The translations under genes were made by a program, and so were the position numbers. A DNA stretch of 57,394 nucleotides from a virus. Position 1 is the stretch's first letter. Every line of letters begins with the position of its first letter. Below are positions 15,538-41,072 of this stretch, piece after piece. Where the stretch lies: positions 1 through 57,394 of IMG/VR virus record IMGVR_UViG_3300017909_002551, one strand, 5' to 3'. The notes under the pieces were generated by a model that worked only from the letters and a program-made list of their open reading frames with translations, had not been told where the DNA came from and did not search any database.

Positions 15538-16230
15538 ATGGCAGTTGATGAAATTACTGATGTCGAGACTCGTCCTGACGGGATTATTCTAACGAAGGTT
15601 GATTATCCCAGCCCCGAGACAATGGTTTGGACACGGGACAAACATCCTGTAGACATTAGTCGAGCACAATATCATCCAGAAACCACCAGTCTTATTAAAG
15701 ACGCCTCCCCTTGGTTTTTCTATACGCCCAGCCCTGACGCATCCGAAGACACACACCTACGCTTCAGCTACCCCATTTTACAGAATGGTGTTAGCGCAAA
15801 CGAAGTAGCGGAGCATTTTGTTTCAAGCGCAGATGTTTTTGACGCTGGCCTAGACCCCGAGACTGGCGTGTTTCAAATCTTGTTAGACTCTTCTGTGTGG
15901 TGGAGGCAAACAGAATGGACGCGAGTATCACCGCCATACTTTCCTCTTTGGTTGCGGCTAGACCAAGAAGTCTTGGTTTCTGGATTGCGACTAGCCTGCA
16001 CGGTGCCGAAAGATAACGACCTCTCTTGGCACCGTTTTGCCCTGCCTGTTTTTGCTGGCAGTTCGGCAGAGGTGCACAGGTCGGGCAATGACTGCTACCT
16101 CATCTCGCTTGAGAGTGACTTGGCCTGCGGAGATAGGACGCTCAGTAAATACAAACTCATCAAACTCTCATCTCCAAGTGTAACCGTCACCCCAACTGAG
16201 GACACAATCCTTTTGAAAGTCTATAGATGA
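15538..16230 (+). CDS. Hypothetical protein (230 aa)
   Basis: ORF track. ATGA coupling to the downstream oxygenase gene. Confidence 0.55.
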   Translation: MAVDEITDVETRPDGIILTKVDYPSPETMVWTRDKHPVDISRAQYHPETTSLIKDASPWFFYTPSPDASEDTHLRFSYPILQNGVSANEVAEHFVSSADVFDAGLDPETGVFQILLDSSVWWRQTEWTRVSPPYFPLWLRLDQEVLVSGLRLACTVPKDNDLSWHRFALPVFAGSSAEVHRSGNDCYLISLESDLACGDRTLSKYKLIKLSSPSVTVTPTEDTILLKVYR

Positions 16231-21569: not shown

Positions 21570-22026
21570 GACAAGCAACACCAATCCGCACGTAACGGAC
21601 AACTTCGCTCCTCTAGAGACGATGACACTCCAAGCTGTGCGTCGGTTTGGTGACTTTGCTCCAGGCACTCTCTCTGGTGATGCGGCCCTCATGTTTATTG
21701 AATTTGCCAACATGATTGTCGATGAGGTTCGCATGCACCCCTATTGGGATGGGACAGAGCTCGACTACTACGAGCACATGTCTGAAACTCGCCCCGTACC
21801 AGACACAATCATGATTGCTGGCCTGCTATTCCATTACTCAACACAGCAGGCATCTGACAAGGCTGAAAGTTATGGGGCTCAATTTATCCGCATGATTAAC
21901 CAGGAACTGTGGCGTCGGCTTAACGGCAATACAAAAATACAGATGCGCGTCACAGACAATGGGACAAACCCCAGAAATTACACAGGTAAGTCTACGGATA
22001 AAAACAACGGAACTGTGAAGTACTAA
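21562..22026 (+). CDS. Hypothetical virion protein, possibly head-tail adaptor (154 aa)
   Basis: Position only. Confidence 0.3.
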   Translation: MTETSNTNPHVTDNFAPLETMTLQAVRRFGDFAPGTLSGDAALMFIEFANMIVDEVRMHPYWDGTELDYYEHMSETRPVPDTIMIAGLLFHYSTQQASDKAESYGAQFIRMINQELWRRLNGNTKIQMRVTDNGTNPRNYTGKSTDKNNGTVKY

Positions 22027-25068: not shown

Positions 25069-25502
25069 TGCGTTACGTAATTGTCCACGAAGGACAAGAC
25101 ACATTAGCAAGAATATGCTCAGCCAAGTGCAAATGCCCTCCGTTCTCGGAGCCGAACTCATCTCTCGGCATCTGGGACAGCAAAGAGGGAAAGCTGGTTG
25201 GTGGAGTGACCTATTCAGACTTCACTGGCCGAGATTTGTGGGCATCCATTTGGTTGGATGACAAAGCTGCCCTGACAAGGGGCATTTTAAGGGAACTGTT
25301 TTCGTATCCCTTTGAGACATGTGGAGTGGTCAGGCTTTCGACAAACGCCAGGAAGGGCAACAGGAAGTCGGTGAAATTAACTAAGCGTCTTGGCTTTTCC
25401 GTGGAAGGAACCCTGAGACGCTTCTTTGGAGACGAAGACGATGACTCAGCAATCGTCTTCGGAATGCTGAAAGAAGAGTGTAGGTGGATTAAAAATGGGT
25501 AA
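25068..25502 (+). CDS. GNAT-family N-acetyltransferase (144 aa)
   Basis: RimJ/RimL-like C-terminal half: NARKGNRKSVKLTKRLGFSVEGTLRRFFG...IVFGMLKEE. Its start overlaps the fibre stop (TAATG). Confidence 0.7.
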   Translation: MRYVIVHEGQDTLARICSAKCKCPPFSEPNSSLGIWDSKEGKLVGGVTYSDFTGRDLWASIWLDDKAALTRGILRELFSYPFETCGVVRLSTNARKGNRKSVKLTKRLGFSVEGTLRRFFGDEDDDSAIVFGMLKEECRWIKNG

Positions 25503-27732
25503 GAAATCAGGACCTCCGGCTCCCCCGCCGCCCCCAGATTACACACCACAGCGTCAGGCTGCGGTTAACGTAGAGAACGCGCGACGCGGACGCGTAGCTC
25601 GGGGATACAATCAAGCGATTGACTCTTTCAACAAACAATTCAGTGGTTACGGAGGCACGCTCGCAGGTTTAGAAGACACTGTCAGCGGCCTTAAACTAGG
25701 TGATGACCTCACAGGTCTGGACGATATCTCAAACCAATTACGCAGTCTCGACAGGAACTTCCAATCTTTTTCAGAGGGGGACGTGTCTTTTCTACAGCCG
25801 TATGATGTAGAAAAGACCGCTGCCGAAAACGAGGCGCGTTATAACCGCGACTTGGCTGCATACAAGGAAAGGAACAAGGACGCTATTGCGAGGTACGAAG
25901 CCCAGCGTAAACCAGGTGTAGCAGGTGTGTATTACACTGGGATAAGAAACAAGGCAGCAAAAAGACCTGGTAATAACTTGCCATTGCCAAAATATTCTGG
26001 GGAATACTCTACGGGGTTTGTCGACCCAGCCACGGGTCGGCGTGTTGAGGCTGCGCCGAATGCTTTAGATTACGGTGGTCAGGATTTTGGAAGATTTGAT
26101 GGAGGAAACGTCCAATACGGTGCGTATGGCCTCCCTGTTGACCCAGGCTTCCAGGCTGCGGGTACGTCTTATGGAGGCGCTGTCGCCTATGACATGCCGA
26201 CCCTCAATAAATTAAACACTGGCAGAGCTGACAGCTACATGCGTCAGGTAGACGATATTGAAGACTTAATTGCGTCACTCCGCAGCGAAGAAGCAGCAGA
26301 GCAAGCTCGTGTCAGTGACTTCTTTGATGACTACATTTCTCAGGCCAACCAACGTGATATTGACGTAGAGTTCGCAGACATCAATGACGACTTCCAAAAA
26401 TATCAACGAGAACTAGCTCAGGCTCGCTCTCAAGTGGGAGACTTCGATAGCGTTCTGGATTTTTCTGATAATAGACAACGGGCATTGGCAGAGCTGGATG
26501 AGTTGGAGGCTATACTCTCTGGCCGCATATCAGCCAAGGATGCTGAACAAGCAAGGGTGGATGCTGCCCGAGCTGGCGCGCGCTCAGAGATTGATGAGCT
26601 GACGGCGGCGCTCAACGCCATGGGTATCGCAGACGCCGACTCTGAAACTATTGATGCCTTGCTTGGCAGGTTAGAGGCTGAGCGTAGCGGGCTTCGAGGT
26701 TTTGAAAGTGACCTAGACTTTGATTTCTCAAATGAGCTTGCCGATATTTACGGGCTTGACGAAGACATATATGCCCTGGGTCAGGAGCGCGCCGCCGAGC
26801 AGGCGCGCATAGACTCACTGGGTCGTAGCTTCGCTAACAGGTCTGACTCTCTTGGTCGCATAGCCGACCGTCAGGGTATCTATAACCTGGCAGAAATTGA
26901 AGACTTACAAGACGCCCTTGCCGCGCTTGAGTCAGAAATCGGCGGCACAACTTCTGAACTCGCAACAGATTTCTCGGGAGCCACTACTGGCATAGAAGGG
27001 GCGCGAGGAACACTTGAGCAGCTTCTTGCTGAAAGAGAGGGGCAGCTAGGGGCTCAAAGAGAATTGGTGGCAGAGTTGTTGTCTGGACGCCAAGATGACC
27101 CGACAACCCCTGACATAGACGAGTCAGTGATGGGCGTTCAGGATATTGCCCTTTCGGACGAAGCTGGACTTCTCGGAAGACGTGCAGACTTTGAAAGAGA
27201 GCTTGAAAACCTGGGTCGGTTCCAAGGCGGAACAGATGCTAACGTAGCTGCAATCCAAGACGCTATTGGTGCTGTAGACGCTCGCCTCAGAGAGTTGGGT
27301 GCTGAGCGCGGTGGAATTGAGGGCGAAGCCTTGGCATCCCTCCAGGACATCCGAAACAGAGAGTTCTTCACTCCTGCTGACGTAGACGCCGCCCGTCAAG
27401 AAGTGGAGCAGATACGTCAGCGTGCTGAGACATTTGGAGCTCAGCAGGCAGCAGACGAACTAGCGGCCCTAGAGCAGATTTTAGGCAGAGAGAGTAACCG
27501 TCTTGCTGAGGACGCTGCTGAAGTTGCATTCCGTGAAGGACAGGGTATGGCAGAGGTTGAGGCTCTGCTTGACCAATTCGGAAACCTGCGTTTCCCAAGC
27601 GTCGGTGATGCACAAGACGTTATGACCGAAGAACAACTCGCAGCATTCCTTGCAAATCAAAGCGAGGAAGACGAGCTCTTAAACATGCTTAATCAGACTG
27701 CGTTTGCACAGAACCTGGCAACGGGAGTCTAA
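25495..27732 (+). CDS. Internal virion/ejection protein, coiled-coil rich (745 aa)
   Basis: Poly-Pro N-terminus PPAPPPPPDY. Long Glu/Ala/Arg/Leu helical repeats. Position just upstream of the giant gene. Confidence 0.45.
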   Translation: MGKKSGPPAPPPPPDYTPQRQAAVNVENARRGRVARGYNQAIDSFNKQFSGYGGTLAGLEDTVSGLKLGDDLTGLDDISNQLRSLDRNFQSFSEGDVSFLQPYDVEKTAAENEARYNRDLAAYKERNKDAIARYEAQRKPGVAGVYYTGIRNKAAKRPGNNLPLPKYSGEYSTGFVDPATGRRVEAAPNALDYGGQDFGRFDGGNVQYGAYGLPVDPGFQAAGTSYGGAVAYDMPTLNKLNTGRADSYMRQVDDIEDLIASLRSEEAAEQARVSDFFDDYISQANQRDIDVEFADINDDFQKYQRELAQARSQVGDFDSVLDFSDNRQRALAELDELEAILSGRISAKDAEQARVDAARAGARSEIDELTAALNAMGIADADSETIDALLGRLEAERSGLRGFESDLDFDFSNELADIYGLDEDIYALGQERAAEQARIDSLGRSFANRSDSLGRIADRQGIYNLAEIEDLQDALAALESEIGGTTSELATDFSGATTGIEGARGTLEQLLAEREGQLGAQRELVAELLSGRQDDPTTPDIDESVMGVQDIALSDEAGLLGRRADFERELENLGRFQGGTDANVAAIQDAIGAVDARLRELGAERGGIEGEALASLQDIRNREFFTPADVDAARQEVEQIRQRAETFGAQQAADELAALEQILGRESNRLAEDAAEVAFREGQGMAEVEALLDQFGNLRFPSVGDAQDVMTEEQLAAFLANQSEEDELLNMLNQTAFAQNLATGV

Positions 27733-27735
27733 CCC

Positions 27736-29247
27736 ATGGTAGCTTTTTCAACAGCATTCAGCGCAGCGTCCTCACTATCTAATGTGATAGGCGGCAAAAG
27801 AGCTAGTAGACAAGCGGAGAAAATGGAGCGCTACCAGGCTGCTGTGGCTGAGCAGGCTCGCAGAGATAACAACGCCAACAACGCGGCTATGGCTCAGCTC
27901 GGTGCTTACAACATGGGTCTTGTAGAAGACCAAAATGACTACTTTAGAGAACTCCAACGTCAACAGAATATTGCAGAGCAAGAGCGTCAACGATACCTGA
28001 GAGGAATGGACGCCAGAAGCGAAGACCGTCTCCTAGACCAGATTAACAGAACTGTTGACCGTCAAGAATTAACTGACGACCTAGAGCTTGAGCGCCGTCA
28101 ATTTGAGTTGGAAAGAATTGCAAGAGACGACAGGCTGACAGAGCAAGAGCGAAGATTTGCACTCGCAGAACTCGAACGGGAAAGAGACAGGGCTCGCCGT
28201 CAACGCCGTCAAGAGCAAGCTCGAATTGACCGAGGCGACCGAACTGTAGCAGACGAATATGAACTACGTCGTAGGCTTCTCGATGAAGACAGAATTACTA
28301 GGTCTGCTGAACGTCAGTTTGAGATTGACCGCCAGAACCAAGCAATCGCACAGGCCGTGGAGACACGCAATCGTATGCGCGATGTGCTGGATGACTACGG
28401 TCGGATTACAGCACCAGAGTTGATTGGCGGAGATGAGATAGCGCGCCGTGCTGACCGCTACTATGACCAGTATAGCCAAGAGGTAGACCAAGCCCTCGAC
28501 AGAAACCTGTCTTCGCTAGAGGCCGACCTTATTAGAAAAGGCATGGAAGGCGGTGGCTCGAGTAATGCGCAACGTGCAGAGATACTTGCGCGGATTGCTC
28601 CTCAGTTTGCGAGAGCCCGTGCCGATGCGAATACTCAGGCTGGACGTGAGGTAGCAACAGAAAATCAAATCTTGCAAGATAGGTTCAAAAACTTGCGGGA
28701 GGCTATTGGTGTCAACCTTGACGCTGAGCAACAAGTCGGAACAACTGCGCTCGACATGCAGGCACGCCTAAGCAACCCAAGTACATCAGCCGTCTTGAAC
28801 CGTGATATAGGAAGTGCTTACAATCCTTACACATCTCGCGGCCCTCAGACTTCTATGACTGGCGTTACAGGGCCTATTTCAATAGGTTCACAAGTGCGTG
28901 ACATAGGCAGTCTGTCTTCTGGTTACGGCAGCCAGTTGAGCATGCCAACACTGGGCATGACAGGAACTGACGCACGCGGTTACGCGGCGTCACCGACCCT
29001 TAATACTCCCAACTACACAAACTTCTTTGATGCGTCAAATACTGGCGCGCGCCAAAACCTCACGGATGCTGCGTCTTCTGCTAACCAAGCGTATAACCGA
29101 GCCGCAGACGCATTTAGAGCTAGAGGCAGCGCAAGGGCTGACTTCATAGGGCAGGCAGGAACTCTGTTGGACGACGTATTTAACCTGGGGGCGTATAGCG
29201 ATGACGCTGGCACTCGTTCAAAATACCGACCAACTAAGGAGGATTAG
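27736..29247 (+). CDS. Internal virion/ejection protein, Arg/Glu coiled coil (503 aa)
   Basis: ERQRYLRGMDARSEDRLLDQ...ELERERDRARRQRRQEQARIDRGD. Confidence 0.45.
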   Translation: MVAFSTAFSAASSLSNVIGGKRASRQAEKMERYQAAVAEQARRDNNANNAAMAQLGAYNMGLVEDQNDYFRELQRQQNIAEQERQRYLRGMDARSEDRLLDQINRTVDRQELTDDLELERRQFELERIARDDRLTEQERRFALAELERERDRARRQRRQEQARIDRGDRTVADEYELRRRLLDEDRITRSAERQFEIDRQNQAIAQAVETRNRMRDVLDDYGRITAPELIGGDEIARRADRYYDQYSQEVDQALDRNLSSLEADLIRKGMEGGGSSNAQRAEILARIAPQFARARADANTQAGREVATENQILQDRFKNLREAIGVNLDAEQQVGTTALDMQARLSNPSTSAVLNRDIGSAYNPYTSRGPQTSMTGVTGPISIGSQVRDIGSLSSGYGSQLSMPTLGMTGTDARGYAASPTLNTPNYTNFFDASNTGARQNLTDAASSANQAYNRAADAFRARGSARADFIGQAGTLLDDVFNLGAYSDDAGTRSKYRPTKED

Positions 29248-29249
29248 TA

Positions 29250-31151
29250 ATGGCATTTGGTGGATACGACTACGAAGGGTTTAGAGACCGCACAGACGAA
29301 ATGGAAACCAAGCGTCTGGATGTGGCGAAAGCCTTTGAAGAGTTTAAGAAGAACAACCCATACGCCACAGCATCAGAGCTGCAATCGGCCATCAACCAGA
29401 TAGCTGGGCCGAACCCTTATCTGCGTGCTGGCGGAGGGACACGCCAGACTGTAGACGAACTCGCCAAAAGAAACAGGCAGGCTTACCTGGAAGAACAGAG
29501 AAATAAGCTGAGCGAAGACATGGACTTTTTTGAAAGGCAGAAAAAGGAAGCCAAAGAAAAGCTCTTCTCAGCGTATTATGACACAGGTGATTTTGAAACT
29601 GCCAAGAACAGGGTTCTGAGTAATCTTGGTGCAGGCGGAACAGGAACTGAGTATGAGCAGTTAACGCTTCCACGGCTCGAGGACTACGTAACAGGTTTAG
29701 ACAAATCCGTAGAAAACCAGTTTGTGAAGCGCATCTTTGACGAAAACCAGGATGCCATGAATGACACTATTGCCAATTATGGAAGCTATGATGACTTCGT
29801 TTTCAATCTTCCAAACCAAAATGTCGCCAATTCACCCGCTCTAAAAAACGCCTTCAACCTAAGAAAAGGAAAACATGATTCAGATGCTGAGGCCCAGGTG
29901 ATGCAAAAAGTTATGGAAATTGCGTCAGACCCAACTAAGGCAAACCTTTACCGTAGCGGCGCTTTGAGTTTTTTTGACACACAGTTTGGTCCCTACTTCA
30001 AGGCCAACCCGCAGGCATTAACTGCTGCAAACGAAATGCTGCAAACCGCTCAGCAGACAATTCACGCAACTCAAATGGGACAGCTAAATATAGCGGCCAA
30101 GGAATACGCAGAAAAGTACTCTGATGGCATGCAGGGAATCATGCAAAACGTGATTGGAAGTTTGACGGATTATCCTGACGGTGTTCAGCAAGCTCTTCGC
30201 CAAATAAACGTGGAGTTCCGCCCGCAAGGTTCTAGCTCTATGAGTGGTATTGTTGCAGCCGTTGAGGCACTAAAAGATGAAGACGATATTAAGGCAGAAG
30301 ATGCGAAGCAAAAAATAATCTCTGCGTCTGGTGGCGCTCTTGTGTCCAAAGCAGAATTTGAGGGTGCGATAGCTGACAGCTACATATCATCAACTGGTAG
30401 ACCAAAGAAACTAACAACCATTACGGCATACTCAAAAGAGCTGTTTGACCCCGAAAGCGGAGACATACCAAGGCGCGTCAAGGAGTCAGCAGACCGTGTC
30501 AATGACGTGGCCAAACCAACCGAAGACTATCTCGACGGCAAGTTGGGTAAATTCCAAGCTAGGTTTGGGCCCCAGGCATACGCTTCGCATATTGCAGACA
30601 TTGATATTGAAATTGCTCGCATTCAAAGCAACATAAATGACATCGACCAAGCAATAGCATACGGCCAAAATCAGACAAATTTCTTGGGTACATTCGGCGA
30701 AGACTTTAACACGCAAGCGGTCAGTGAAAACAACGCATCTGGTCAAGAGGCCAAACGGGTTCTTGCGGCTCAGTTGGTACAACTTCAGGAAGCTAAGAAT
30801 CAGGTTCAAAGCTCTCTGGCTCTCGCCGAACGCCGAGTTCAAGGTAATTTAACAAACAGAGACATAAGCGGCGCAGAGGTTCAACGTCTCGCTCAGGAGT
30901 TTTTAAGAATGGGCGGAACCCTAGATATGCTGACAGGTCAAGCGCCAGCAAGTCAGCAGCTCAGTCCCGCTTTAAGGTCTCCATACGCGTTCCAGCAAGC
31001 AGGGCCAGACCGAGCATCAGTACTCAGAGAAATTTTGAAACAGTCTGGGATTCAGACAAACCAACAAAGAGATATGCGTGGCAATCCTATAGGCAATCCA
31101 CAACTAGAGCAGAACAGGCTCATCCAACGCCTTATAGACGCTCTTCAATAA
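29250..31151 (+). CDS. Internal virion/ejection protein (633 aa)
   Basis: Position and helical composition only. Confidence 0.45.
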   Translation: MAFGGYDYEGFRDRTDEMETKRLDVAKAFEEFKKNNPYATASELQSAINQIAGPNPYLRAGGGTRQTVDELAKRNRQAYLEEQRNKLSEDMDFFERQKKEAKEKLFSAYYDTGDFETAKNRVLSNLGAGGTGTEYEQLTLPRLEDYVTGLDKSVENQFVKRIFDENQDAMNDTIANYGSYDDFVFNLPNQNVANSPALKNAFNLRKGKHDSDAEAQVMQKVMEIASDPTKANLYRSGALSFFDTQFGPYFKANPQALTAANEMLQTAQQTIHATQMGQLNIAAKEYAEKYSDGMQGIMQNVIGSLTDYPDGVQQALRQINVEFRPQGSSSMSGIVAAVEALKDEDDIKAEDAKQKIISASGGALVSKAEFEGAIADSYISSTGRPKKLTTITAYSKELFDPESGDIPRRVKESADRVNDVAKPTEDYLDGKLGKFQARFGPQAYASHIADIDIEIARIQSNINDIDQAIAYGQNQTNFLGTFGEDFNTQAVSENNASGQEAKRVLAAQLVQLQEAKNQVQSSLALAERRVQGNLTNRDISGAEVQRLAQEFLRMGGTLDMLTGQAPASQQLSPALRSPYAFQQAGPDRASVLREILKQSGIQTNQQRDMRGNPIGNPQLEQNRLIQRLIDALQ

Positions 31152-31222: not shown

Positions 31223-34200
31223 GTGGCACAAAAGTTTGACAACAACTTTAACACTGACCTATTTAGCTTTGATGAGGATGTATCAAACGTATCATCCTAC
31301 GACTCTAGCACTCTAAGCACCGCAACCGGACTAGACGCATTTCGCGACCCGCGATTTATCGCTGAGCTGCGCGAGTACTACGCCAACAAGGGCGATTACT
31401 TCAACAACGATGCCGACCTGATTGACGCCTTTTATTCCGACCAGACATGGGGGGCTATGAACACTGGTTCGCTGGCGAAAGATATCGGCGAAGCATACAC
31501 CTCCAGCGATAGGCAAGTAACCCTCATGCGCCGCATGAAGGAAGTCTATGATAGCACCCCCAATTTCTACGAAGAGGGTGGGCGCGGAGCTGCTGGACTT
31601 GGGCAGAATATTCTTGCCGCCGCAATGGACCCCCTTAACTTAGTTGGTTTTGGTGCTGGTGGTGCCGCTGCAAAAACAGCATTAAGAGCTGGAGCATCCA
31701 CAGGCAACGTGTTGGGTGCGGCGGCGAAAGCTGGTGCAAAAGCTGAGGCTCTTGCTGGTGGTATCACCGAAGGTGCTTTCAACACTCTTGAGCAAGTGCG
31801 CGACAAGCAAATTGGCTTACAGGATGAATTTAGCTTTGGTCGGCTTGCAGGCGCGACGGCCCTTGGTACTGCTGCGGGTGGTGCTCTTGGCGCTGGTTTT
31901 GGTGCCCTTGGCGCTGGATTTCAAGCAGGCACGAGAGGCATGGACATCCCTGGGTCATTCACTATTGGCAGAGAGAACGCAAGGCTGAAAGCACTGGATT
32001 ACTCCGACGAAGACATAGCAATGATGCCTCAGGAGTATGTCAAAAAGGTTCTTAAAACTGACTTGAGCCGTGCGGAAAATGTTGATTTTCAACAGATGGA
32101 CGCCCAGGCTCAGGCTGAAGCAACTGGTGCAGGGCAAGAGGGCGCAACGGGTCAAGCCGACGGGGATGCTGCCCAGACACAAGCGCAAGAAATAGAGGAC
32201 GCCAACCGCACTGGTATAGACGTAGGACGTACAATCAATATAGAGGCGATTGACAGGGAGCTTGCGAGGTTGGCAGACGACTTGCGCGAAAACCTTGAAA
32301 ACCCCACCGTTCGACAGGAAATCAACGACCAGATTAATGCCTTTGAAGAAATGCGCCAACTTGGTCAGCGCATGAACAACCACCGCAGCGAAATAGCTGA
32401 GGGCTTGGAGTCAAACGACACGGCCAAAATTAACAGGGCGAAGGCGCGTCTCACAGAGCTTAACAACCTGCGAGCACTGTATGACCAAGCGATTGAGAAC
32501 AATGACCCTGGCATCATTGCCCGTATCAAGAAAGCGGAAGCTGAGTACGCCGCCAAGAAGGCTAAGGAAGAGGAGGCTGCTGCAAAAGCTGCCACCGCAG
32601 ATGCTGCAAAGGCAGCCCCCGCAGCGGAAGCTCCTGCGGCAGACGCAGACGCTCAAAAGCCAGCAAGCCTAGACGACTTCCAGTTCACTGGCGACAAGAC
32701 AAAAGCGAAGGCTGAGGCTGCTGGGCTCACAGCAGAGGACTTTGCTAACGAAAGCCCGTCTGGGCGAAATGGCAAATTTAACGCCAAAGATATACGCAGG
32801 ATTGCAAAGGCAAAAGGCACTGAACCAGGCGCTACACCTGCGGAGGCTGAGGCTGCGCTTCCCGAGGAAGCCGAGGCAGTACCTGCGGATATTATTTACC
32901 GTAGTGAAAACCAGCGCAAAAGTATGACAAAGATGCTGGACGATGCTGGTATGGACGAGGATGACCTACGAGCATTGATTGCTAACGGTCAGCTCAAGGT
33001 TCGCGAAGACGGCGTCACTCTAACAACGGAAGCGACCAAACAGCTACGCACCCTTACGAAAGACGCTCGAGACAAAAACATCTCAGACGAAAAACTGTTT
33101 GGACAAGCTATAGATGCGCTCGAGCCCATCCGCGAAAGACTGGGCGAAGAAAAGTTTATGGCAATTCTTCAGCATGAGCCTCGTGTCATCCGTGAGATTT
33201 TGCGTAAGTCTGACCCCAAGGGTGCTGACGCCCTAATGGATGCAGTTGAAAGAGTGCTAGCAGAAGACGGACTTCAGTCATCTGTGAGACTTACAAAGAC
33301 TCAGAGACGTCGCTCCAAAATCATCAAAGACAATCTGATTGCAAACAACCCAGGCATGTCGGATGACGTGGCTCAAGCTATTGCTGACGGCAGGGCACTA
33401 GCCGAGTCATTCCAACCGAAGCCAGCCGCAAAGAGTGAAATGACTGGGACGCTTGGAGACGCGCCAGTTGAGACAACCGCTGGCAGAACAAATCGCGGTC
33501 GCCTTCAAAGTTTCTTACGCGGAAATACGCCGATTGGAGATGGGCGCACAGTTATTGGTCGAGCCCCCATGGTTATTCGTGGCACAGAAGGTGAAAGCCA
33601 GAGAGCTGGGGTTATTTACGGCGCAGACCAGGCAGTTGCTTTTGCAGAAAAAGAAATACTGAAGGACTTTGTAGACCCAGATGGTGTAACACGCTCTCGC
33701 CTGGAACAAGACTTGTCGCCAGTTAGGTACGTCTCCACGGGTGGCGAGGAAATATTTGGTGGCGCAGCAACAACCAAATCGCTTCCAAACAATCGCAAGC
33801 AAATCCAACGAGAAAAAGCTCAAAAGGGTAAGCCGTACTTCTACGACCCCGTAACCAAGAAGTTCTATAGGGACGAGGCTTTGATGCGCTACATGCGTGG
33901 CGAAGCCGAGAAAGCTCCTGGCAAAGACGTCAATATTGACGAACCATCAATGCCTGAGCGCCAGCGCTTAGCTGAGATTGCGAGCAGCTTTGTAGACGAA
34001 CACCAAGATATAGACCGCTTGATTGCGGAGTTAACAAATGTTGATACCGTCCGCGTTGCTCGAGAGGCAAAGGGCAATGTCCCAGATGTGCCGAACATTG
34101 ACGCTGACGGCAAAATACTGGCGCTCCGACCGAAAGACCCAGAAAAACCCATACGAGTCATCTCTCAGAAGCAGCTTCAATCTGGTGCTGACATAAACAC

Positions 34201-37200
34201 TCTGTTAGGCAAGTCAGACATAAATGACTTTGAGGTGGGTTATGTAGACGGCAGCTCAACATACGGGACTAAGTTGGCCGAAAGCTCATTTGAGCCGTTT
34301 ACTCCAGGCGCCAATGCGCCAACCCGCGCGTTTATCAGTTCCTACGAGGCATCAAAAATCCCTGTTGAGATTGATGAGGGAGACTTGTCCGCCATCCTTA
34401 CAATGGCAGAGACGGTGCCATTGGGTGAGAGAGGCCAAAATCCTTTCAAAATCTTAGAGAAGCTAAAGCAAGGCGACCTTAACAAGCAAAAGGTAGACGA
34501 GATATTGCGCGCAACTGAGATGTACATTGGATGGCCACTCAGCAGGAAGCAAACAAACGTAATTGATTTTGTCCGTGCCTTACATGAGTTCCGAAACAAG
34601 TACGTTCCTGAGGAGATTCGCCTTCCTACTGAGGCGCTCAAAGAGAGCCAGAAACAATTAAAAATACATACAGTAAACTTCACTGCGTCCGAAAAAAGGG
34701 AGGCGCGTCGACTATTAGAGGTCTTGTCTGGTGCGGGCAAAGGTTCACCCAAGTTTGCAGACACAACCATCCTTTCTGGCTTTGGAACTGCAAACGGAGA
34801 GTATTCTATCACAGGCAATACGATAAAGCTCGCCTCGGAAATGGTGAACACTGAGCATCCACGTTTGCAAACCTTGCTTCACGAAATGGCGCATTGGGCA
34901 TACGCAAATGTGCTGTCCAACGAAGACCGTCTTTTGTTCTGGGACGGAATGCAAAAATACTGGGACAATAAGGGAACACTCTATGATGATGTATTGAATA
35001 TGAATGTTCCTGATAAGGCTCTTTCTACGGCGATAGGCATAAGAAAAAAAATCCGCACCCCTCAGGAGTTCTTCGCTGACCAGTTTATGATTTGGGCAAC
35101 GCAAGAAAGGCTGGCCCCAAAGTTTCGTGACGTGGCTTACTATGAGGGAATGAGTCAGTTTGTTAGCCCTCAGTGGTGGTCGACTATAGCTCGCTACTTG
35201 CGCAACATCGTTGACCAGATGCTAGACCCCAATAAGGTTGACCAAGACCTAGTTCCTCTGTTCTCCAAAATCATGCCCGACCCAGAGCGCGCAATCGCAG
35301 CTCAAGAAGGTGTTGTCGCCCCAACCTCTGAAGGCGGCGCTGCGCTGATGCGGCGCATGGTAGACTACCAGCTAACTATGGATGACCTGCAAGAAGCACT
35401 GGATATTGAAAGTCCAGAGGGCATCATCAATCATGCCCTTTACCTCGCTGACAGGCTCAAAGGCCAATCTGGTGGTACGCAAACTAGACCGTTTCGACTG
35501 ATGGCAAGCACGAATGGTTTAGCTCGCACTTTATCTAAGCGTATTTATGAAGCCGCAGAAATTCCCAAAGATGTTGTGGATTCAGGTGATATGGACGCCT
35601 TCCTCAGAACCGACGAGTTTATCTCGAGCATGGAGCGACGAGCAGAAAGAGTAGTAAGGGCGCTGGACGGGATAACAGACGGCGAGACAGAAGGTCAGGC
35701 TATGTCAGCCTTTGAGATTATAGACACTATAATTTCACAGGGACGAAAAAAATATAATAGCCTGAAAGCAGAAGAGACCAACATTCTCTCAGACTTGTCT
35801 CTTGCGCCTCGTAAAAAAGAGCACCCATACCGCAAAAAACAAAGGTTTATTGGTGCAAACGCAAAGCGTCGCCGCAAGGCCGATAAGAAGAAGGCCAGGT
35901 CAGAAGCGCAAGCGGTACAGCAAGTCAACGAAATTGACGTAACTGAGACTGCTACAGTTGAAATAGAAGCCACGTTTTCTCCGCGTACAGCTCCGACCGA
36001 CAAGCTGCAAAAAGTTTTTGAAGAAAACAAAAACGACTACGGCAGACACATCGGAATGGAATTGCTCCGCCGTACTCGCGCTGAAGTTCAAGACCCGAGC
36101 TTGGTACAGATTGAAGTCACAGACCCAATGGTCTCAGAGGCAATGAACCGAGAGGTTACTTTCACGGTTGGCGTAGACAAAGACAGCGTCACCCCCTCTG
36201 GTCCCTTTGCTTTGCGTGAGGCGCAAAACGCTCTGTCGCAGCGCGTACCAGTAATATCTCACGGCATGAAGACAATGTATGCCCGCATCAATATGCTTTC
36301 TGGAGCAGAGCAGGGAGAGACTACAGTTGGTCTCCTTAACGCAATAGGCGGCAACTATGAGTCTGCCAGAGTCCCCGAAATTTTCATGGGTGACTACAAC
36401 TCGGATGCCTTCAAGAGTGCTAGAAGTCGTTTGCGTAACATGGCTGTTGCCATGGAGGGCGGAGATGATTCAGTAGTCGACAACTTAATTGACTTCCTAA
36501 TTGGTTCAGAAATGCTGGTCATAAAGGACGAAGTTGCAGCATCTATGGGTGTTGAGACGGCAGAACAGGTGGTCAATATTCTGAAATCAAGCATGCGGAA
36601 GAACCCAGCAGACTTAGATTTTGGAGATGCGGCAGATGTTCTGGTTGAGCAGGTCTCTGAGAATATCGCCTACATAACCAATGGCCTCATGCCAAACGGC
36701 CTCAAAGAAAAATTCCCCATGATTGACCGCTATGGTGATGTTTTCACACCACCCGAAGCGTCCTTCTCCAGCCTTCCTGGCCGCTCCGATACCATCAGGG
36801 CTCGCATGTCTACGCCAATGGCGTCTGAATTTGCCATGGATAGTTTTGCTTCTTCATCACCAGGACGCAAAAATGCAATCCTAAACTTCGTGGGTAACGG
36901 AGTTGGTGGTGGCGACACCCCAGTTCCTTACTTTGGTAGTCGAGTTAGTGGTGGTGTCGTCTCCCCTGTAAAGACAGGTTTTGGACGGGCGAAGCGCGTA
37001 TTCCTGAGTGCCAACGACGCTGACGAAAGGGCAAATCTGACAGCAGAGCAAGTATCTGAGGCTATGGCAGGGCAACCAAGTGAAGCAACCGAGGATGTGC
37101 TAAATCTTCTTGAAAGCCGTGCTAGATACCAAGAGCTCTCCGCAAAAATGCGAGACCGCGCCGAACAAGGAAACTCAGATGTGTTCTCAGCCGAAGCAGA

Positions 37201-40200
37201 AATGGCTGAGTACCAAATTTCTGAAATAGACAGGGAGCTGGACAAGATATTTCCTGACCAAGGGTCAGCAGAACCTGTGTATGTCAAAGCAGATAATGTT
37301 GTTAAATTTGATGACGGCGCGACATACAACGTCCAAGAAAGCAGCCTGATTAATGCCATAGTAAACGACCTTATGAATCGGGATGTTGGTATTAGTCAGG
37401 AAGCCCTGAGTAAATCAGCTCAGTCAGCTCCTCTCGAAATGAATGGAACCGAGACTTACGCGTGGCTCAAATCATTAGTAGACCCAAGCGGAAAACGTCC
37501 GTCTCTGGCTGAGCGTGAGATACGGATGACGCTCAACAACATAGGTGTGGACGGTGCGACAGAGACTGTCGAAGGAAAGACCGCACTGGTTGTCTTCCAC
37601 AATGAAAACGTGCGGCCAGTTGATGATAACTACTTTGATGAAACATCAATAGACACAGAGATTGGGTTCGCATCAATGCCTGCCGTTCGTGCAGTCAACA
37701 CCGCATTCACGTCTACAGCATTTGAAGGTCTAACTCTTGGCCCGCAGCACGCTACATCTCTTGGTGTGGCGCTCGACCAAGCTGGAATGCCACCGTCGGC
37801 AACAAGTGGAATGGTCAAAATGACCAAGGGCAAAATACCTGATGCCCGAGAAGCTGGCGCTGTGCAGCGTCTTTGGAACAAGGGGTTCCTTGAGAACTCA
37901 GAACGTCTACGCAGAGAGGGGTTACACTGGTTTGCCGACTGGATATCGCCAGCCCGAGACTCTGGTACTGGGCACTTCGAGCGGATTAACGGCAAGACAG
38001 GGTCAATCCTTGTGCCCCTGTTCAAGCAGTTGCGCTCTCTAAAGGACAGCCCTGGAACACTAAACTCCTGGCTGCGCTCCCAAACGCAGTACACGTTTAT
38101 GCCAGAAAATTTCCGCGCTAAACAACCTGGGTCTCACAAAAAAATCGTGAACGCCTTGCGTAGACCAACAGGCAACCGCTTTGAGCAGAGCATGGATGCA
38201 GCCGAACTAGCTGCATACAAAAACATACGGGGTATCTTTGACCGTCTGCACGGTGAGATGAAAGCCCAGGGCATCATGATTGGGACAGTAAATAACTACT
38301 TCCCACAAGTGTGGAATGTAGAGAAGATACGTCAGAACGAAGATGCTTTCATGCAGTCTATGGCCAACTACTTCAAGCGTGAGGCCGAAGACCGCAACGT
38401 CTCCATCAATGACAATGAGGCCAAAGAAGCGGCTCGTCGAGTTATGGGCAACCTTATAGACGATGACGGCGTCTACACACCGCCGCCAACAGGCGGCAGC
38501 CGCGACGTGACTGGCGACCACATCGACTATCAGCGTCTTATCCGGCTGGACAAATTCGTTGAAGAGCTGGATGACGTTGGCCAATACCTTGAGGATGACC
38601 TTGAGGCCATCATGTCAAAGTATGTTGATGGCGCTGTCCGACGCATCGACTTCTCCGAGAAGTTCGGCCAGCAGTCTCATGGTTTCCACGATTACATGCT
38701 AGTTATCGAAGACTCTGGTGACATGACTGACTCGATTGCTCACCTACTCTCTACTGTGAAGGTGTCTAAGCGTGAGCTTCGTTCTTTCGAGAGCAACAGC
38801 AATGATGTCGTAGATGTTGGTAGCCTCGAGCGCATCACCCCCATGCCATTTGACGACAAAGTCATGGCAGTGTCAGCCGCGCGAGAAGCCATACAGCGTG
38901 CAGAAGAGGGGCCCAGTGCAATCAAAGACTATTTGATGTCCCTGGACACAAGCAATAACGACATCGACAGGGCGGTTTATGAAAAGCGCGTTGATGCCAT
39001 CACTGGCGCAATCATGGACAGGCAGGCTCTGGGAGCCCGCCCGCATGCAGACGTAGTAAAAGCCGCCAATGGCACGATGCGAGCAATCATGCGTAAGCCT
39101 GTAGATGCTTCTAGTCCGTTCTTCCAGGGCGCTCACGCGTTTTCCAAGAACATGCGTAACTTTAACTCGGTCACTTTGCTGGGCTTTACCACGCTGACAT
39201 CCTTGGGCGACCCTGCGTTGACCGCCATTCGTACTGGTAGCCTCAAGGCTTGGTCTCAGGGTATGGCTAAATACGCCTCAGACCCACACTACAGGGACTT
39301 CATTAGGTCTTCTGGGGTTGCCATCGAGAACATTGTGCACGAACGCATGACTGGCTTGTATGGGACAACGGCGTCTAAAAACACTGTTGCATTTTTTAAT
39401 GGCACGATGCTGACACCGTGGACAAACACTCAGCGAGAGATGGCTGGGGCTGTTGGTTATGAGTGGTTCAAGTCTGAGTTCAACAGAGCTATTACAAACT
39501 TCAACCCCAACGCTCCATTAGGTCAGCAAAACAGAACCTTCAAAGCAGCATATCGCGTGTTGCGGCGCTACGGTCTGGACGACCTTCTTGCACAGAACCG
39601 TCGTATCGACAATGTCAGTGACTTTAACGACATGCCCGAGCTTCGTTCTGCCATTAACAAATTTGCTAACGAGACGATATTTACGCCAAACCCAGACCAG
39701 CTTCCTTTGTGGAGCCAAACTCCTGTCGGCGCGATGATAGCCCAGCTCAAGTCTTATCCGCTCATGCTTCAACGACTGGTCGCTGACAGCATCAAGCAGG
39801 CCACGACCGTTGACCCTGTGACAGGCGGTGGACGTAGATTTGGTCCGCTACTCATGCTGGCTTCAGTAGCTCCGGCTGCTGGTGCAGGAACGCTGGCCGT
39901 TAAGGACGTTGTACAGAGGCGTGGCGAGGACGGAGACAACCTTCGTGAGCGCTCAGCACAGGACATGGCGGAGCGTCTTGGGTTCGACCCAGGTCTTCAC
40001 GGAGACGTAGACGCATTTCTTGGTTGGTATCTGGAAGGCTTTGTGATGCTCGGGGGCTTGGGTCTCTTGGCAGATATGATGTATCAGACTGCCGAGCAGG
40101 TTGACCAAGGCGGGGCTTACGGAGCCATGAGAACAGCGGGTGTTGTTGGCGGACCGTGGGTCGGAACACTATGGGCTGGATATGATGTTGTGTCTGGTGG

Positions 40201-40402
40201 ATGGGACGCCGCAATGAGAGGCGACGAAAACGGAACAGGCAAAGAAAGAGCTGCTGTCCGTGCTCTAGCTCAGCGCGTCCCTGTTGCTGGTGGCATCCGA
40301 ACATTGAGAGAAGGTGTGGTCGACGAGGTAGCAGGCGAGCCTACAAAACCAGGCAAAAAGTCGAGCTCTTGGTCGTCAAACTGGACTACTAAGTGGGATT
40401 AG
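31223..40402 (+). CDS. Giant (3,059 aa) virion/ejection polyvalent protein with zincin-like HExxH motif
   Basis: Uninterrupted 9.18-kb frame. Gly/Ala-rich hydrophobic segments near the N-terminus (GAAGLGQNILAAAMDPLNLVGFGAGGAAAKTAL...) and the C-terminus (GLGLLADMMY...VVGGPWVGTLWAGYDVVSGGW). Ala/Glu/Lys low-complexity region. LQTLLHEMAHWAY followed by PQEFFADQF. Last gene of the virion block. Confidence 0.75.
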   Translation: MAQKFDNNFNTDLFSFDEDVSNVSSYDSSTLSTATGLDAFRDPRFIAELREYYANKGDYFNNDADLIDAFYSDQTWGAMNTGSLAKDIGEAYTSSDRQVTLMRRMKEVYDSTPNFYEEGGRGAAGLGQNILAAAMDPLNLVGFGAGGAAAKTALRAGASTGNVLGAAAKAGAKAEALAGGITEGAFNTLEQVRDKQIGLQDEFSFGRLAGATALGTAAGGALGAGFGALGAGFQAGTRGMDIPGSFTIGRENARLKALDYSDEDIAMMPQEYVKKVLKTDLSRAENVDFQQMDAQAQAEATGAGQEGATGQADGDAAQTQAQEIEDANRTGIDVGRTINIEAIDRELARLADDLRENLENPTVRQEINDQINAFEEMRQLGQRMNNHRSEIAEGLESNDTAKINRAKARLTELNNLRALYDQAIENNDPGIIARIKKAEAEYAAKKAKEEEAAAKAATADAAKAAPAAEAPAADADAQKPASLDDFQFTGDKTKAKAEAAGLTAEDFANESPSGRNGKFNAKDIRRIAKAKGTEPGATPAEAEAALPEEAEAVPADIIYRSENQRKSMTKMLDDAGMDEDDLRALIANGQLKVREDGVTLTTEATKQLRTLTKDARDKNISDEKLFGQAIDALEPIRERLGEEKFMAILQHEPRVIREILRKSDPKGADALMDAVERVLAEDGLQSSVRLTKTQRRRSKIIKDNLIANNPGMSDDVAQAIADGRALAESFQPKPAAKSEMTGTLGDAPVETTAGRTNRGRLQSFLRGNTPIGDGRTVIGRAPMVIRGTEGESQRAGVIYGADQAVAFAEKEILKDFVDPDGVTRSRLEQDLSPVRYVSTGGEEIFGGAATTKSLPNNRKQIQREKAQKGKPYFYDPVTKKFYRDEALMRYMRGEAEKAPGKDVNIDEPSMPERQRLAEIASSFVDEHQDIDRLIAELTNVDTVRVAREAKGNVPDVPNIDADGKILALRPKDPEKPIRVISQKQLQSGADINTLLGKSDINDFEVGYVDGSSTYGTKLAESSFEPFTPGANAPTRAFISSYEASKIPVEIDEGDLSAILTMAETVPLGERGQNPFKILEKLKQGDLNKQKVDEILRATEMYIGWPLSRKQTNVIDFVRALHEFRNKYVPEEIRLPTEALKESQKQLKIHTVNFTASEKREARRLLEVLSGAGKGSPKFADTTILSGFGTANGEYSITGNTIKLASEMVNTEHPRLQTLLHEMAHWAYANVLSNEDRLLFWDGMQKYWDNKGTLYDDVLNMNVPDKALSTAIGIRKKIRTPQEFFADQFMIWATQERLAPKFRDVAYYEGMSQFVSPQWWSTIARYLRNIVDQMLDPNKVDQDLVPLFSKIMPDPERAIAAQEGVVAPTSEGGAALMRRMVDYQLTMDDLQEALDIESPEGIINHALYLADRLKGQSGGTQTRPFRLMASTNGLARTLSKRIYEAAEIPKDVVDSGDMDAFLRTDEFISSMERRAERVVRALDGITDGETEGQAMSAFEIIDTIISQGRKKYNSLKAEETNILSDLSLAPRKKEHPYRKKQRFIGANAKRRRKADKKKARSEAQAVQQVNEIDVTETATVEIEATFSPRTAPTDKLQKVFEENKNDYGRHIGMELLRRTRAEVQDPSLVQIEVTDPMVSEAMNREVTFTVGVDKDSVTPSGPFALREAQNALSQRVPVISHGMKTMYARINMLSGAEQGETTVGLLNAIGGNYESARVPEIFMGDYNSDAFKSARSRLRNMAVAMEGGDDSVVDNLIDFLIGSEMLVIKDEVAASMGVETAEQVVNILKSSMRKNPADLDFGDAADVLVEQVSENIAYITNGLMPNGLKEKFPMIDRYGDVFTPPEASFSSLPGRSDTIRARMSTPMASEFAMDSFASSSPGRKNAILNFVGNGVGGGDTPVPYFGSRVSGGVVSPVKTGFGRAKRVFLSANDADERANLTAEQVSEAMAGQPSEATEDVLNLLESRARYQELSAKMRDRAEQGNSDVFSAEAEMAEYQISEIDRELDKIFPDQGSAEPVYVKADNVVKFDDGATYNVQESSLINAIVNDLMNRDVGISQEALSKSAQSAPLEMNGTETYAWLKSLVDPSGKRPSLAEREIRMTLNNIGVDGATETVEGKTALVVFHNENVRPVDDNYFDETSIDTEIGFASMPAVRAVNTAFTSTAFEGLTLGPQHATSLGVALDQAGMPPSATSGMVKMTKGKIPDAREAGAVQRLWNKGFLENSERLRREGLHWFADWISPARDSGTGHFERINGKTGSILVPLFKQLRSLKDSPGTLNSWLRSQTQYTFMPENFRAKQPGSHKKIVNALRRPTGNRFEQSMDAAELAAYKNIRGIFDRLHGEMKAQGIMIGTVNNYFPQVWNVEKIRQNEDAFMQSMANYFKREAEDRNVSINDNEAKEAARRVMGNLIDDDGVYTPPPTGGSRDVTGDHIDYQRLIRLDKFVEELDDVGQYLEDDLEAIMSKYVDGAVRRIDFSEKFGQQSHGFHDYMLVIEDSGDMTDSIAHLLSTVKVSKRELRSFESNSNDVVDVGSLERITPMPFDDKVMAVSAAREAIQRAEEGPSAIKDYLMSLDTSNNDIDRAVYEKRVDAITGAIMDRQALGARPHADVVKAANGTMRAIMRKPVDASSPFFQGAHAFSKNMRNFNSVTLLGFTTLTSLGDPALTAIRTGSLKAWSQGMAKYASDPHYRDFIRSSGVAIENIVHERMTGLYGTTASKNTVAFFNGTMLTPWTNTQREMAGAVGYEWFKSEFNRAITNFNPNAPLGQQNRTFKAAYRVLRRYGLDDLLAQNRRIDNVSDFNDMPELRSAINKFANETIFTPNPDQLPLWSQTPVGAMIAQLKSYPLMLQRLVADSIKQATTVDPVTGGGRRFGPLLMLASVAPAAGAGTLAVKDVVQRRGEDGDNLRERSAQDMAERLGFDPGLHGDVDAFLGWYLEGFVMLGGLGLLADMMYQTAEQVDQGGAYGAMRTAGVVGGPWVGTLWAGYDVVSGGWDAAMRGDENGTGKERAAVRALAQRVPVAGGIRTLREGVVDEVAGEPTKPGKKSSSWSSNWTTKWD

Positions 40403-40553
40403 TCTTTTTCTGAATAAGGATGGAGCCATCCTCCTTTTTAATAAAGACCAAGGTATCTCCGTCTTTCCAGTCTAAGTCGTCAAGAAGGTCGCTTAGGTCA
40501 AGGAAAATACCGTCGGGGGTTTCCCTGACGTCTGCATGCCAAATCCTAATCAT
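40389..40553 (-). CDS. AbrB/SpoVT(MazE)-like small protein (54 aa), not in the ORF track
   Basis: Hand translation: MIRIWHADVRETPDGIFLDLSDLLDDLDWKDGDTLVFIKKEDGSILIQKKTNPT. The ATG overlaps the upstream TGA (ATGA). Its 3' end overlaps the giant gene by 14 nt, convergently. Confidence 0.4.
   Translation of the reverse strand: MIRIWHADVRETPDGIFLDLSDLLDDLDWKDGDTLVFIKKEDGSILIQKKTNPT
40417..40439 (+). terminator. Possible terminator after the giant gene
   Basis: AGGATG-GAGC-CATCCT then CC and T5. It lies inside the small convergent ORF. Confidence 0.35.
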
Positions 40554-40804
40554 TTGGTTAAGGCTTTATCTAGCGCACCCACATAGCCAGCTATGTCAAC
40601 AAGGCTGTCCTTGTGCATAGGGGTCTCAACGGTGCGAGCAACCTTGAGCAATATCATCATCATGGCAACGTCTTGAACCTCTATTGAGAACCCCAAGTAA
40701 GAAGTCCACATCTCAGCGATACGTTTCAGATTTTCTCGGGGATGACCGTATTTTTCGCCACGCTCATCAATAACTCTAATTGCCTCTTGCAGTATATCAG
40801 TCAT
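40550..40804 (-). CDS. Conserved helical phage protein (84 aa), possibly nucleotide-pyrophosphohydrolase-like
   Basis: Start trimmed to MTDILQEAIRVIDERGEKYGHPRENLKRIAEMW...VAMMMILLKVAR...HKDSLVDIAGY (GGAG RBS). The pattern resembles a DUF family I recall from phages. Confidence 0.4.
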   Translation of the reverse strand: MTDILQEAIRVIDERGEKYGHPRENLKRIAEMWTSYLGFSIEVQDVAMMMILLKVARTVETPMHKDSLVDIAGYVGALDKALTK

Positions 40805-41072
40805 AGCCGTACTCCAGTTCTGCTTTGAGACGTTCTTTTTCAGTCTCAAGTTCCTGTCTCTCAATGCGGACTTCTGTCAGCCGCTCTCTTGTGTGACGGC
40901 GTTTGTCGACCACCTTGATAAGCGCGTCCCCACCGTTCCGCTGTTTGTTTAGCTGGGTGATGCGCTCATTCATGCTCTCGACTTGGTGAGCCAGCTCGAT
41001 TTCTTCGCACTGAACTTCGCCAAGAGAGCCCAGAATTTCGTCCAGCCTCACGAGTTTTTCCATTCTCGTCAT
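40797..41072 (-). CDS. Coiled-coil protein (91 aa)
   Basis: ORF track. Overlapping coupling with both neighbours. Confidence 0.5.
   Translation of the reverse strand: MTRMEKLVRLDEILGSLGEVQCEEIELAHQVESMNERITQLNKQRNGGDALIKVVDKRRHTRERLTEVRIERQELETEKERLKAELEYGYD

Follow-up and report, generated by a model that had tools for sequence, protein, structure and literature searches.

A gene at 31223-40402 on the plus strand of IMG/VR virus record IMGVR_UViG_3300017909_002551 (positions 1 to 57,394, the whole stretch of 57,394 nucleotides (nt) analysed here and called the window below) encodes a protein of 3,059 amino acids (aa), hereafter the giant protein. Sequence comparison suggests that it is probably an internal virion (ejection) protein of the T7 gp16 type, with a polyvalent cargo of about 1,900 residues in which one zincin domain, Z1, is intact. 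T7 gp16, also called internal virion protein D (PHROG 342), is the part of the podophage DNA ejectosome that lies in the inner membrane. An initial annotation, made from the DNA letters and their open reading frames (ORFs), had proposed an ejected channel or effector protein; this proposal gains indirect support from the apparent likeness of the C-terminal module to T7 gp16 and podophage virion proteins and from the location of the gene at the end of the virion operon.

A first search for relatives returned 31 homologues, each a single ORF of 2,793-4,459 aa; their contigs measure about 50-60 kb. With a profile of the Z1 core, HMMER was run exhaustively against 1.84 billion cluster representatives and retrieved 432 protein clusters at E<=1e-3, of which 260 reach E<=1e-10 and 127 reach E<=1e-30. 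We examined the best 150 of these 432 matches, to which the counts of new sequences below refer; all are members of this giant-protein family, and 141 new sequences were returned. At least 2,500 aa are found in 113 of the 141 new representatives (median 3,310, maximum 4,110). The C module described below is present in all 113 of these new giant representatives, the N module in 103 and an HExxHW motif in 111, the latter also occurring in 32/32 first-round family sequences. BLASTP and module hidden Markov models (HMMs) indicate four modules common to the whole family, with variable spacers between them. Alignment of the window segment with full-length homologues was dropped, as the segment ends were smeared, and cut-out modules were used instead.

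The C and N modules and T7 gp16

Sequence comparison shows homology of the C-terminal 900 residues with the T7 gp16 family, and also with further podophage proteins annotated as 'virion structural proteins'. The following features and matches support this:

37610-40399, plus strand: C module (aa 2130-3059), mostly helical and better conserved than any other part of the protein (41% mean column identity)
38114-38464, plus strand: gp16-like core (aa 2298-2414), ...LxxxER...YFPQVWN..., matching phrog_342 at E 1.8e-10
39734-39775, plus strand: AQLKSYPLMLQRL motif (aa 2838-2851), counterpart of T7 gp16 MQFKSFTIKSL (1105-1115)
39839-39901, plus strand: hydrophobic helix 1 (aa 2873-2893), FGPLLMLASVAPAAGAGTLAV, mean hydropathy 1.58, no charged residues, candidate membrane segment
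40007-40087, plus strand: hydrophobic helix 2 (aa 2929-2955), FLGWYLEGFVMLGGLGLLADMMYQTAE, mean hydropathy 1.5, with W2935, G2944 and G2947 invariant, candidate membrane segment
C module HMM 168-238 against T7 gp16 598-673: LTPxER...YxPQVW opposite LTPSER...YVPHVY
C module HMM 695-745 against T7 gp16 1101-1155: FQLKSFP opposite MQFKSFT, then a Gly/Ala hydrophobic segment

The giant protein matches phrog_342 ('internal virion protein with endolysin domain') at E 1.8e-10 and its best relative does so at E 5.7e-16; T7 gp16 matches the same family end to end. Members of the C-module alignment match PHROGs 684, 6958, 30152 ('virion structural protein'), 16310 and 342. When the family HMMs were compared with T7 gp16 itself (hmmsearch), similarity was found at three collinear places, residues 321-409, 598-673 and 1101-1155, and the middle match recurs when the C module is aligned by hhalign with seven diverse gp16 proteins (probability 60.5%, E 8.4e-5). 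Q2841, K2843, M2848 and R2851 are invariant in the AQLKSYPLMLQRL motif, as are Q1107, F1108, K1109 and F1111 in the gp16 alignment. Remote tblastn matches of the C module, all weak, fall on structural proteins of podophages KPP25/phiR18, TL-2011b, HTVC103P/104P and others. The AlphaFold2 (AF2) model of the module is nearly all helix, with one beta-hairpin (mean predicted local distance difference test score, pLDDT, 62.7).

The likeness to T7 gp16 extends to layout. The gp16 gene likewise comes last among the large genes of the internal-protein block; the profile similarity lies at gp16 residues ~550-680, Y-x-P-x-V-W/Y and Q-F/L-K-S-F/Y motifs are shared, and Gly/Ala-rich hydrophobic segments lie past these motifs. 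In contrast, the giant protein is 2.3 times as long as the largest reviewed homologue (1,337 aa), is without the lytic transglycosylase domain, and has some 1,900 residues of enzyme-type cargo between its gp16-like parts. In the review by Swanson et al. (PMC8954989), gp16 homologues measure 609-1,337 aa and conserve their membrane-spanning elements, ejection proteins are mosaic, and the transglycosylase domain is phage-specific and optional, being absent from P22-like homologues. The giant protein fits this picture save for its size and its inserted cargo.

A motif within the N-terminal 240 residues is tentatively assigned to the T7 gp16 family as well:

31310-31942, plus strand: N module (aa 30-240), an SDxTW...LPNFxEGGRGA...DPxNLxGFG motif followed by Gly/Ala-rich segments, conserved in 32/32 family members
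31844-31933, plus strand: glycine-zipper segment (aa 208-237), LAGATALGTAAGGALGAGFGALGAGFQAGT / GALGAGFGALGAGF, 30 uncharged residues with GxxxG

The N module matches phrog_342 weakly (E 3.4e-4, at T7 gp16 family positions 310-409), and positions 119-193 of its HMM align with T7 gp16 residues 321-409 (hmmsearch), EGGRGA..DPxN standing opposite EAGLGA..DPLS, with a Gly zipper following. We call this link tentative because it comes solely from the PHROG E-value. In one family alignment G223, G227 and G232 of the zipper are invariant. Hydrophobic Gly/Ala segments had been claimed for both ends of the protein, and we find them at aa 208-237, 2873-2893 and 2929-2955.

The N module also aligns with gp52 of Pelagibacter phage HTVC033P (1,393 aa; hmmsearch E 2.8e-36), with which the giant protein has nothing else in common. 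Since the two proteins share this module only, it seems to be a portable N-terminal unit that occurs on the last internal proteins of various marine podophages. The gp52 gene (L005 8728-12909) is the last structural gene of HTVC033P, just before the lysis genes. A homologue search with the N-module profile gave only three short ORFs from frameshift-rich long-read contigs, Gly/Ala-rich words having probably swamped the word index. These short proteins with the N module only are artefacts, because their long-read assemblies shatter the whole structural block; in L006 and L007 (ENA contigs named *_pilon), large structural genes are all broken into small ORFs.

A PHROG scan of the whole giant protein returned phrog_342 only, and a scan of the C-terminal 930 aa alone returned five other families without phrog_342; the two outcomes were both accepted as valid local matches. 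This discrepancy is probably an effect of HMMER filtering or bias correction on a very long query, and piecewise scanning is worthwhile for long proteins.

The Z1 zincin and the decayed domains of the cargo

Z1 very probably represents a divergent clade of the polyvalent-protein metallopeptidase, one whose sequence reaches the threshold of no curated zincin family. Its main features are:

34040-35482, plus strand: Z1 module (aa 940-1420), zincin-like metallopeptidase domain of polyvalent type, plus flanking helices
34880-34894, plus strand: HEMAH (aa 1220-1224), proposed two zinc-binding His and catalytic Glu, invariant, in predicted helix 275-290 of the model
35063-35086, plus strand: QEFFADQF (aa 1281-1288), containing the proposed third zinc ligand E1282, invariant, in predicted helix 341-356 of the model

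The segment LQTLLHEMAHWAY holds H1220, E1221 and H1224, and E1282 of PQEFFADQF (PQEFFA(N/D)QF in the family) lies 58 residues past H1224, just as the initial annotation had described an HExxH followed about 60 residues later by PQEFFADQF. A single HExxH is not rare by chance in so long a protein; nevertheless, the motif is invariant in the family. In alignments of 14, 18 and 25 sequences H1220, E1221, H1224, W1225, E1282 and A1285 do not vary.

The AF2 model of Z1 (pLDDT 73.9, predicted template-modelling score 0.67) has only two short predicted strands (254-256 and 261-263) just before the HExxH helix, where a zincin has a three-stranded beta-sheet. In BFVD, Foldseek matches this model to three 'large polyvalent protein associated domain-containing' proteins (E 1.2e-13, 3.8e-9 and 1.7e-6). 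In the PDB, anthrax lethal factor is the only recurring family (E 0.37-1.9), and a PDB profile search with the 200-residue Z1 core finds only PPEP-1/Zmp1, with E about 1, at the ligand helix YPxEFFAESF. Apart from these M34 zincins, lethal factor and PPEP-1/Zmp1 of Clostridioides difficile, no solved protein comes up in both the fold and the profile search of Z1. The two also have an HExxH and then a Glu in an EFFAE-type helix some 40-60 residues on, although the matches are non-significant (E 0.4-2) with TM-scores below 0.2. Among Pfam zincins the sub-threshold matches are SprT-like (20.4 bits against a cut-off of 25.6, E 4.7e-4), Tox-MPTase3 (E 0.0025), MPTase-PolyVal (PF18818, E 0.044, in 1/25 sequences), Peptidase_Mx, DUF6782 and M91. 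Whole-protein searches of Pfam and of PDB sequences yielded nothing useful. Finally, the Z1 core profile aligns with N4 gp50 just past the single HExxH of that protein, at NEFMAWG (E 0.0017, in one comparison only). The weak matches to lethal factor, PPEP-1 and N4 gp50 are convergent pointers to a zincin. The polyvalent-type zincin of the initial annotation, one of the glutamate type, is supported by the invariant motifs, their placement on AF2 helices and the BFVD match (E 1e-13), but no solved zincin structure was matched significantly.

Iyer et al. 2017 (PMC5512222) define the polyvalent metallopeptidase by an HExxH on one helix and a Glu on the next, and report it as the commonest domain of injected polyvalent proteins, present in one to five copies per protein and frequently fused to an ADP-ribosyltransferase (ART). 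The N4 domain was linked by these authors to lethal factor via HHpred, and self-processing or attack on host proteins were suggested as roles (PMC5512222). The giant protein resembles polyvalent proteins in being a huge chain with one or two zincins and an ART, encoded beside virion genes. It departs from them in that Z1 falls below the Pfam MPTase-PolyVal threshold, the ART and a second zincin (Z2) are decayed here, and the cargo lies within a gp16-like frame.

A further comparison is offered by N4 gp50, a virion RNA polymerase of 3,500 aa housed in the capsid, from which it is ejected alongside two partner proteins (PMC5512222, PMC13434306). Both are giant proteins of short-tailed phages with a zincin-like HExxH...(N/Q)EF-x-A domain; in contrast to N4, the phage considered here is probably temperate and is of another family, and the other modules of its giant protein have no match in gp50. 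We detected no RNA polymerase domain in the giant protein with Pfam or PHROG. A reading as an N4-type virion RNA polymerase was rejected on this ground and because the family HMMs match gp50 at the zincin region alone.

Between Z1 and the C module, two further domains of the cargo are recognizable:

36020-36817, plus strand: middle part 1 (aa 1600-1865), a decayed second zincin (Z2) that has lost HExxH and AEEWF here
36815-37612, plus strand: middle part 2 (aa 1865-2130), a decayed ADP-ribosyltransferase of PARP-like/ART-PolyVal type, in which the giant protein matches the family HMM at E 2.6e-54

The family consensus of this region comprises an HExxH...AEEWF domain and a YHGT...YGPGIYF(A)...GYDG...VVF(D/E) domain. 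The Z1 profile matches Z2 in nine relatives (E 1e-8 to 6e-3), so that Z2 is a paralogue of Z1. To judge from their motifs, Z2 and the ART are apparently intact in many relatives and decayed in this genome. While Z1 is intact in 32/32 of the first sequences, the HExxH of Z2 is kept in 15/32 (it is absent in P0001-P0005), YHGT in 9/32 and GxGxY in 22/32. Pfam ART-PolyVal (PF18760) matches seven of nine relatives (E 3e-7 to 0.09, one just over the gathering score) and Pfam PARP one of the nine tested; the ART region of the giant protein itself has no Pfam match. Here PYFGS stands in place of YHGT and GFGRAKRVF in place of YGPGIYF, so that the catalytic His and the GxGxY Tyr of the H-Y-E triad are lost. 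Likewise, in the giant protein and its four nearest relatives Z2 and the ART are still recognizably homologous, with the HExxH, the YHGT His and GxGxY gone.

These findings revise two statements of the initial annotation. The other 2,500 or so residues, most of which had been described as matching nothing recognizable, include the gp16-like N motif, the decayed Z2, the decayed ART and the 900-aa gp16-like module. Several activities had also been proposed; Z1 alone has intact motifs here while Z2 and the ART are decayed, and with a single intact catalytic motif set the idea fits the relatives, not this protein.

Proposed delivery and alternative readings

As an ejection protein, the giant protein would be packed in few copies inside the capsid and, at infection, would pass unfolded through portal and tail along with the products of the three preceding genes. 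The C module would refold and its two hydrophobic helices would enter the inner membrane, where the N-terminal glycine zipper may insert as well; the membrane parts together might help to form a DNA conduit, as proposed for gp16. Formation of the conduit would lead to delivery of the cargo into the cell. The Z1 protease would most likely cleave its own giant chain at module borders, or else host proteins.

Several results weigh against this interpretation. Significant similarity to gp16 covers only about 120-200 of 3,059 residues, the phrog_342 and hhalign matches being local (about 70-130 residues), and a comparison of the N module with the gp16 proteins by hhalign gives no support. The giant protein also lacks the transglycosylase domain of T7 gp16, with no SLT or lysozyme match in Pfam or PHROG. 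The C-module model has low confidence across the hydrophobic helices, and a Foldseek search with it against the PDB, T7 gp16 entries included, found nothing below E 0.17 and no phage protein. Regarding Z1, the best Foldseek match in the PDB has E 0.16, nothing being significant; profile searches of the PDB with either module, Z1 or C, are empty or near E = 1; and all Pfam zincin matches are under their cut-offs. The spatial proximity of H1220, H1224 and E1282 is an assumption in the Z1 model. Self-cleavage by Z1 is a guess based on what has been published about other polyvalent proteins.

A more specific form of the proposal, which we consider possible but doubtful, is that of an ejectosome subunit with an inserted effector cassette: after ejection Z1 would cut the borders between N, cargo and C parts, so that the channel is built and the cargo freed in the cytoplasm. 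The proposed cut borders coincide with those of the three-piece gene found in Roseobacter phage CRP-810 (see below). In an alternative scenario with the same architecture and delivery, Z1 would be an effector that cuts host proteins (e.g., of defence or envelope), not its own chain. This is among the roles listed by Iyer et al. for polyvalent metallopeptidases (PMC5512222); the nearest solved relatives, though weak, are a toxin (lethal factor) and a secreted protease (PPEP-1), and Z1 is strictly conserved even where Z2 and the ART have decayed. However, the similarity to lethal factor and PPEP-1 is non-significant, and N4 gp50 and ArdC-type proteins carry such domains with no effector role shown (PMC5512222). 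We view this scenario as a tenable but unlikely one.

It is improbable that the cargo is mostly inert, decayed filler, the protein being a structural core or ejectosome subunit (e.g., one setting length or volume) whose HExxH...E would bind metal for stability. Two of the three enzyme domains have indeed lost their motifs here while length is kept, the spacers are long and of low complexity, and the C and N modules are best conserved. Nevertheless, the general-base Glu E1221, the ligands, W1225 and the EFFA helix do not vary across more than 140 sequences whose overall identity is just 20-30%, and this joint invariance is hard to explain without catalysis.

That the giant protein is instead an external tail or tape-measure-like protein is suggested by weak PHROG tape-measure matches of one family member each (E 5e-4 and 7.5e-4) and by the location of the gene after the tail-fibre genes. 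We consider this very improbable, as no tail-tube, tape-measure, sheath or chaperone genes were seen in the genome, the capsid is of podophage type, and the matches to gp16 and podophage virion proteins are stronger.

The gene, its neighbours and its phage

The giant gene (31223-40402, plus strand, stop included) is a single frame of 3,059 codons with a GTG start and no internal stops, preceded by GGAG 9 nt 5' of the start. The N-terminus, MAQKFD..., can be aligned from about residue 5 with relatives that start MAQDDFD... Given the trinucleotide composition of the window, 3,059 stop-free codons would arise by chance with a probability of about 10^-47. As the initial annotation had stated, one uninterrupted frame takes up about 16% (16.0%) of the 57.4-kb genome and closes the virion block, being the last gene of the rightward virion operon.

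The giant ORF is a real, conserved gene and not a fusion artefact. That an assembly or sequencing error joined several genes, which the initial annotation had named as an outcome that would refute it, has a negligible chance of being right: the homologous region of isolate CRP-810 is annotated as three coding sequences (CDS) and short fragments occur on some metagenomic contigs, but more than 140 independent giant ORFs come from various samples and assemblers, the fragmented contigs are long-read 'pilon' assemblies with every structural gene shattered, and errors introduce stops and frameshifts rather than remove them over 9 kb.

CRP-810 (OR671924) is the closest isolate and the only full relative at the protein level, with the same gene order. 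Its gp36, gp35 and gp34 form a true orthologue of the giant protein (31% identity over 73% of the query, same position and neighbours) that, unlike the single frame here, is annotated as three CDS in three frames. The breaks, at L001 (reverse complement) 15935-15981 and 21920-21990, fall at the N / cargo / C module borders, and that between gp35 and gp34 coincides with a 29-nt tandem duplication, ATGTCTATGCTCCGTGGCCGCAAGCTCGA x2 (MSMLRGRKLD twice). Either the split is an artefact of sequencing or the gene has truly undergone fission in a viable isolate; its location at module borders hints at modular independence, sequencing error being also possible. Only gp36 is named ('internal virion protein D').

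The remaining features of the gene and its surroundings are:

25495-31151, plus strand: three upstream genes (products of 745, 503 and 633 aa), which by position alone are candidates for partner ejection proteins
32090-32902, plus strand: low-complexity spacer (aa ~290-560), acidic, then Ala/Glu/Lys-rich (composition per 100 aa)
32903-34039, plus strand: region aa ~561-939, conserved in closer relatives only (BLASTP ranges), with no Pfam or PHROG match
35720-36022, plus strand: basic linker (aa ~1500-1600), net charge +9, RKKEHPYRKKQRF...KRRRKADKKKAR
40417-40432, plus strand: terminator-like hairpin, with a T-run to 40442, just 3' of the stop of the giant gene (consensus match only)

The Ala/Glu/Lys spacer of the initial annotation is confirmed by the 33 Ala, 13 Lys and 9 Glu among residues 401-500; it is not conserved among distant family members. 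The three upstream genes keep their size and order in CRP-810, L002 and L003, and encode large, hydrophilic proteins with a high content of Ala, Glu, Gln and Arg. No family matches were found for these proteins, nor any similarity to T7 gp14/gp15 or N4 gp51/gp52. The initial annotation had described three coiled-coil proteins upstream of the giant gene; the three large genes are there, but the coiled coils were not confirmed, a heptad count finding 1-4% of windows coiled-coil-like in a scan too crude to exclude them.

Minus-strand genes converge on the giant gene from 40389. At 40402-41070 of the window no lysis cassette follows it: the operon stops at the terminator-like hairpin, with convergent minus-strand genes after it. 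The giant gene of CRP-810, L002 and L003 is followed directly by a gene for a holin, a lysozyme or a peptidase M15. A GNAT acetyltransferase gene (25068-25502, plus strand) lies within the virion block, after the tail genes and ahead of those for the three large proteins; its position is kept in CRP-810 (gp40), and contig L007 also has an acetyltransferase gene upstream.

The genome is probably that of a temperate, short-tailed marine phage of CRP-810 type. An exact 141-bp direct repeat at 1-141 and 57254-57394, either a terminal repeat or a circular-assembly overlap, indicates that the window is a complete genome. It encodes a large terminase subunit, portal, SU10-type major capsid protein and tail fibres, and also a Cas4-type exonuclease, single-stranded-DNA-binding protein, Sak4-like annealing protein and primase-polymerase. 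A tyrosine integrase gene (52857-53864, minus strand; Pfam Phage_integrase E 9e-24) makes the phage probably temperate, in line with reports for CRP-810-type phages. A collagen triple-helix repeat protein of 596 aa (12790-14580, plus strand; Pfam Collagen E 3e-11) is probably a tail fibre. At the genome ends lie genes for an AAA_5 (MoxR/CobS-like) ATPase and a CobT-type VWA protein (1032-2765 and 56345-57340, both minus strand), which would be adjacent if the genome were circularized; such pairs are frequent auxiliary genes in marine phages. A nucleotide search with 20 kb around the giant gene found no match among GenBank phages. Two metagenomic relatives have the order capsid (Pfam SU10_MCP), structural genes, three large proteins, giant gene, small lysis-type genes and minus-strand replication block. 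CRP-810 and 251 uncultured genomes were proposed by Wu et al. 2024 as a new, globally distributed family, in which CRP-810-type phages infect marine Roseobacter, SAR11 and other bacteria; there only ORF36 was named ('internal virion protein D') and the giant gene, which fills a sixth of these genomes, was neither discussed nor annotated (PMC11288001).

Both giant ejected proteins, such as N4 gp50, and polyvalent proteins that combine zincin and ART domains were known before, the initial annotation had picked the correct class, and no new principle is involved. New are the placement of a large marine family in this class, the tie of its C module to gp16 and the gradient of cargo decay. Several hundred giant metagenome proteins hereby receive a working annotation, and the size and domain range of gp16-like ejection proteins is extended well past 1,337 aa. 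The relatives also provide a natural series for cargo function, from two zincin motifs with an intact ART motif set, through the one intact zincin here, to the possibly split three-gene isolate. If the self-processing form of the proposal is true, globally abundant temperate marine phages would carry a built-in, self-processing system of effector delivery, whose cargo in many relatives would include an apparently intact PARP-like ART.

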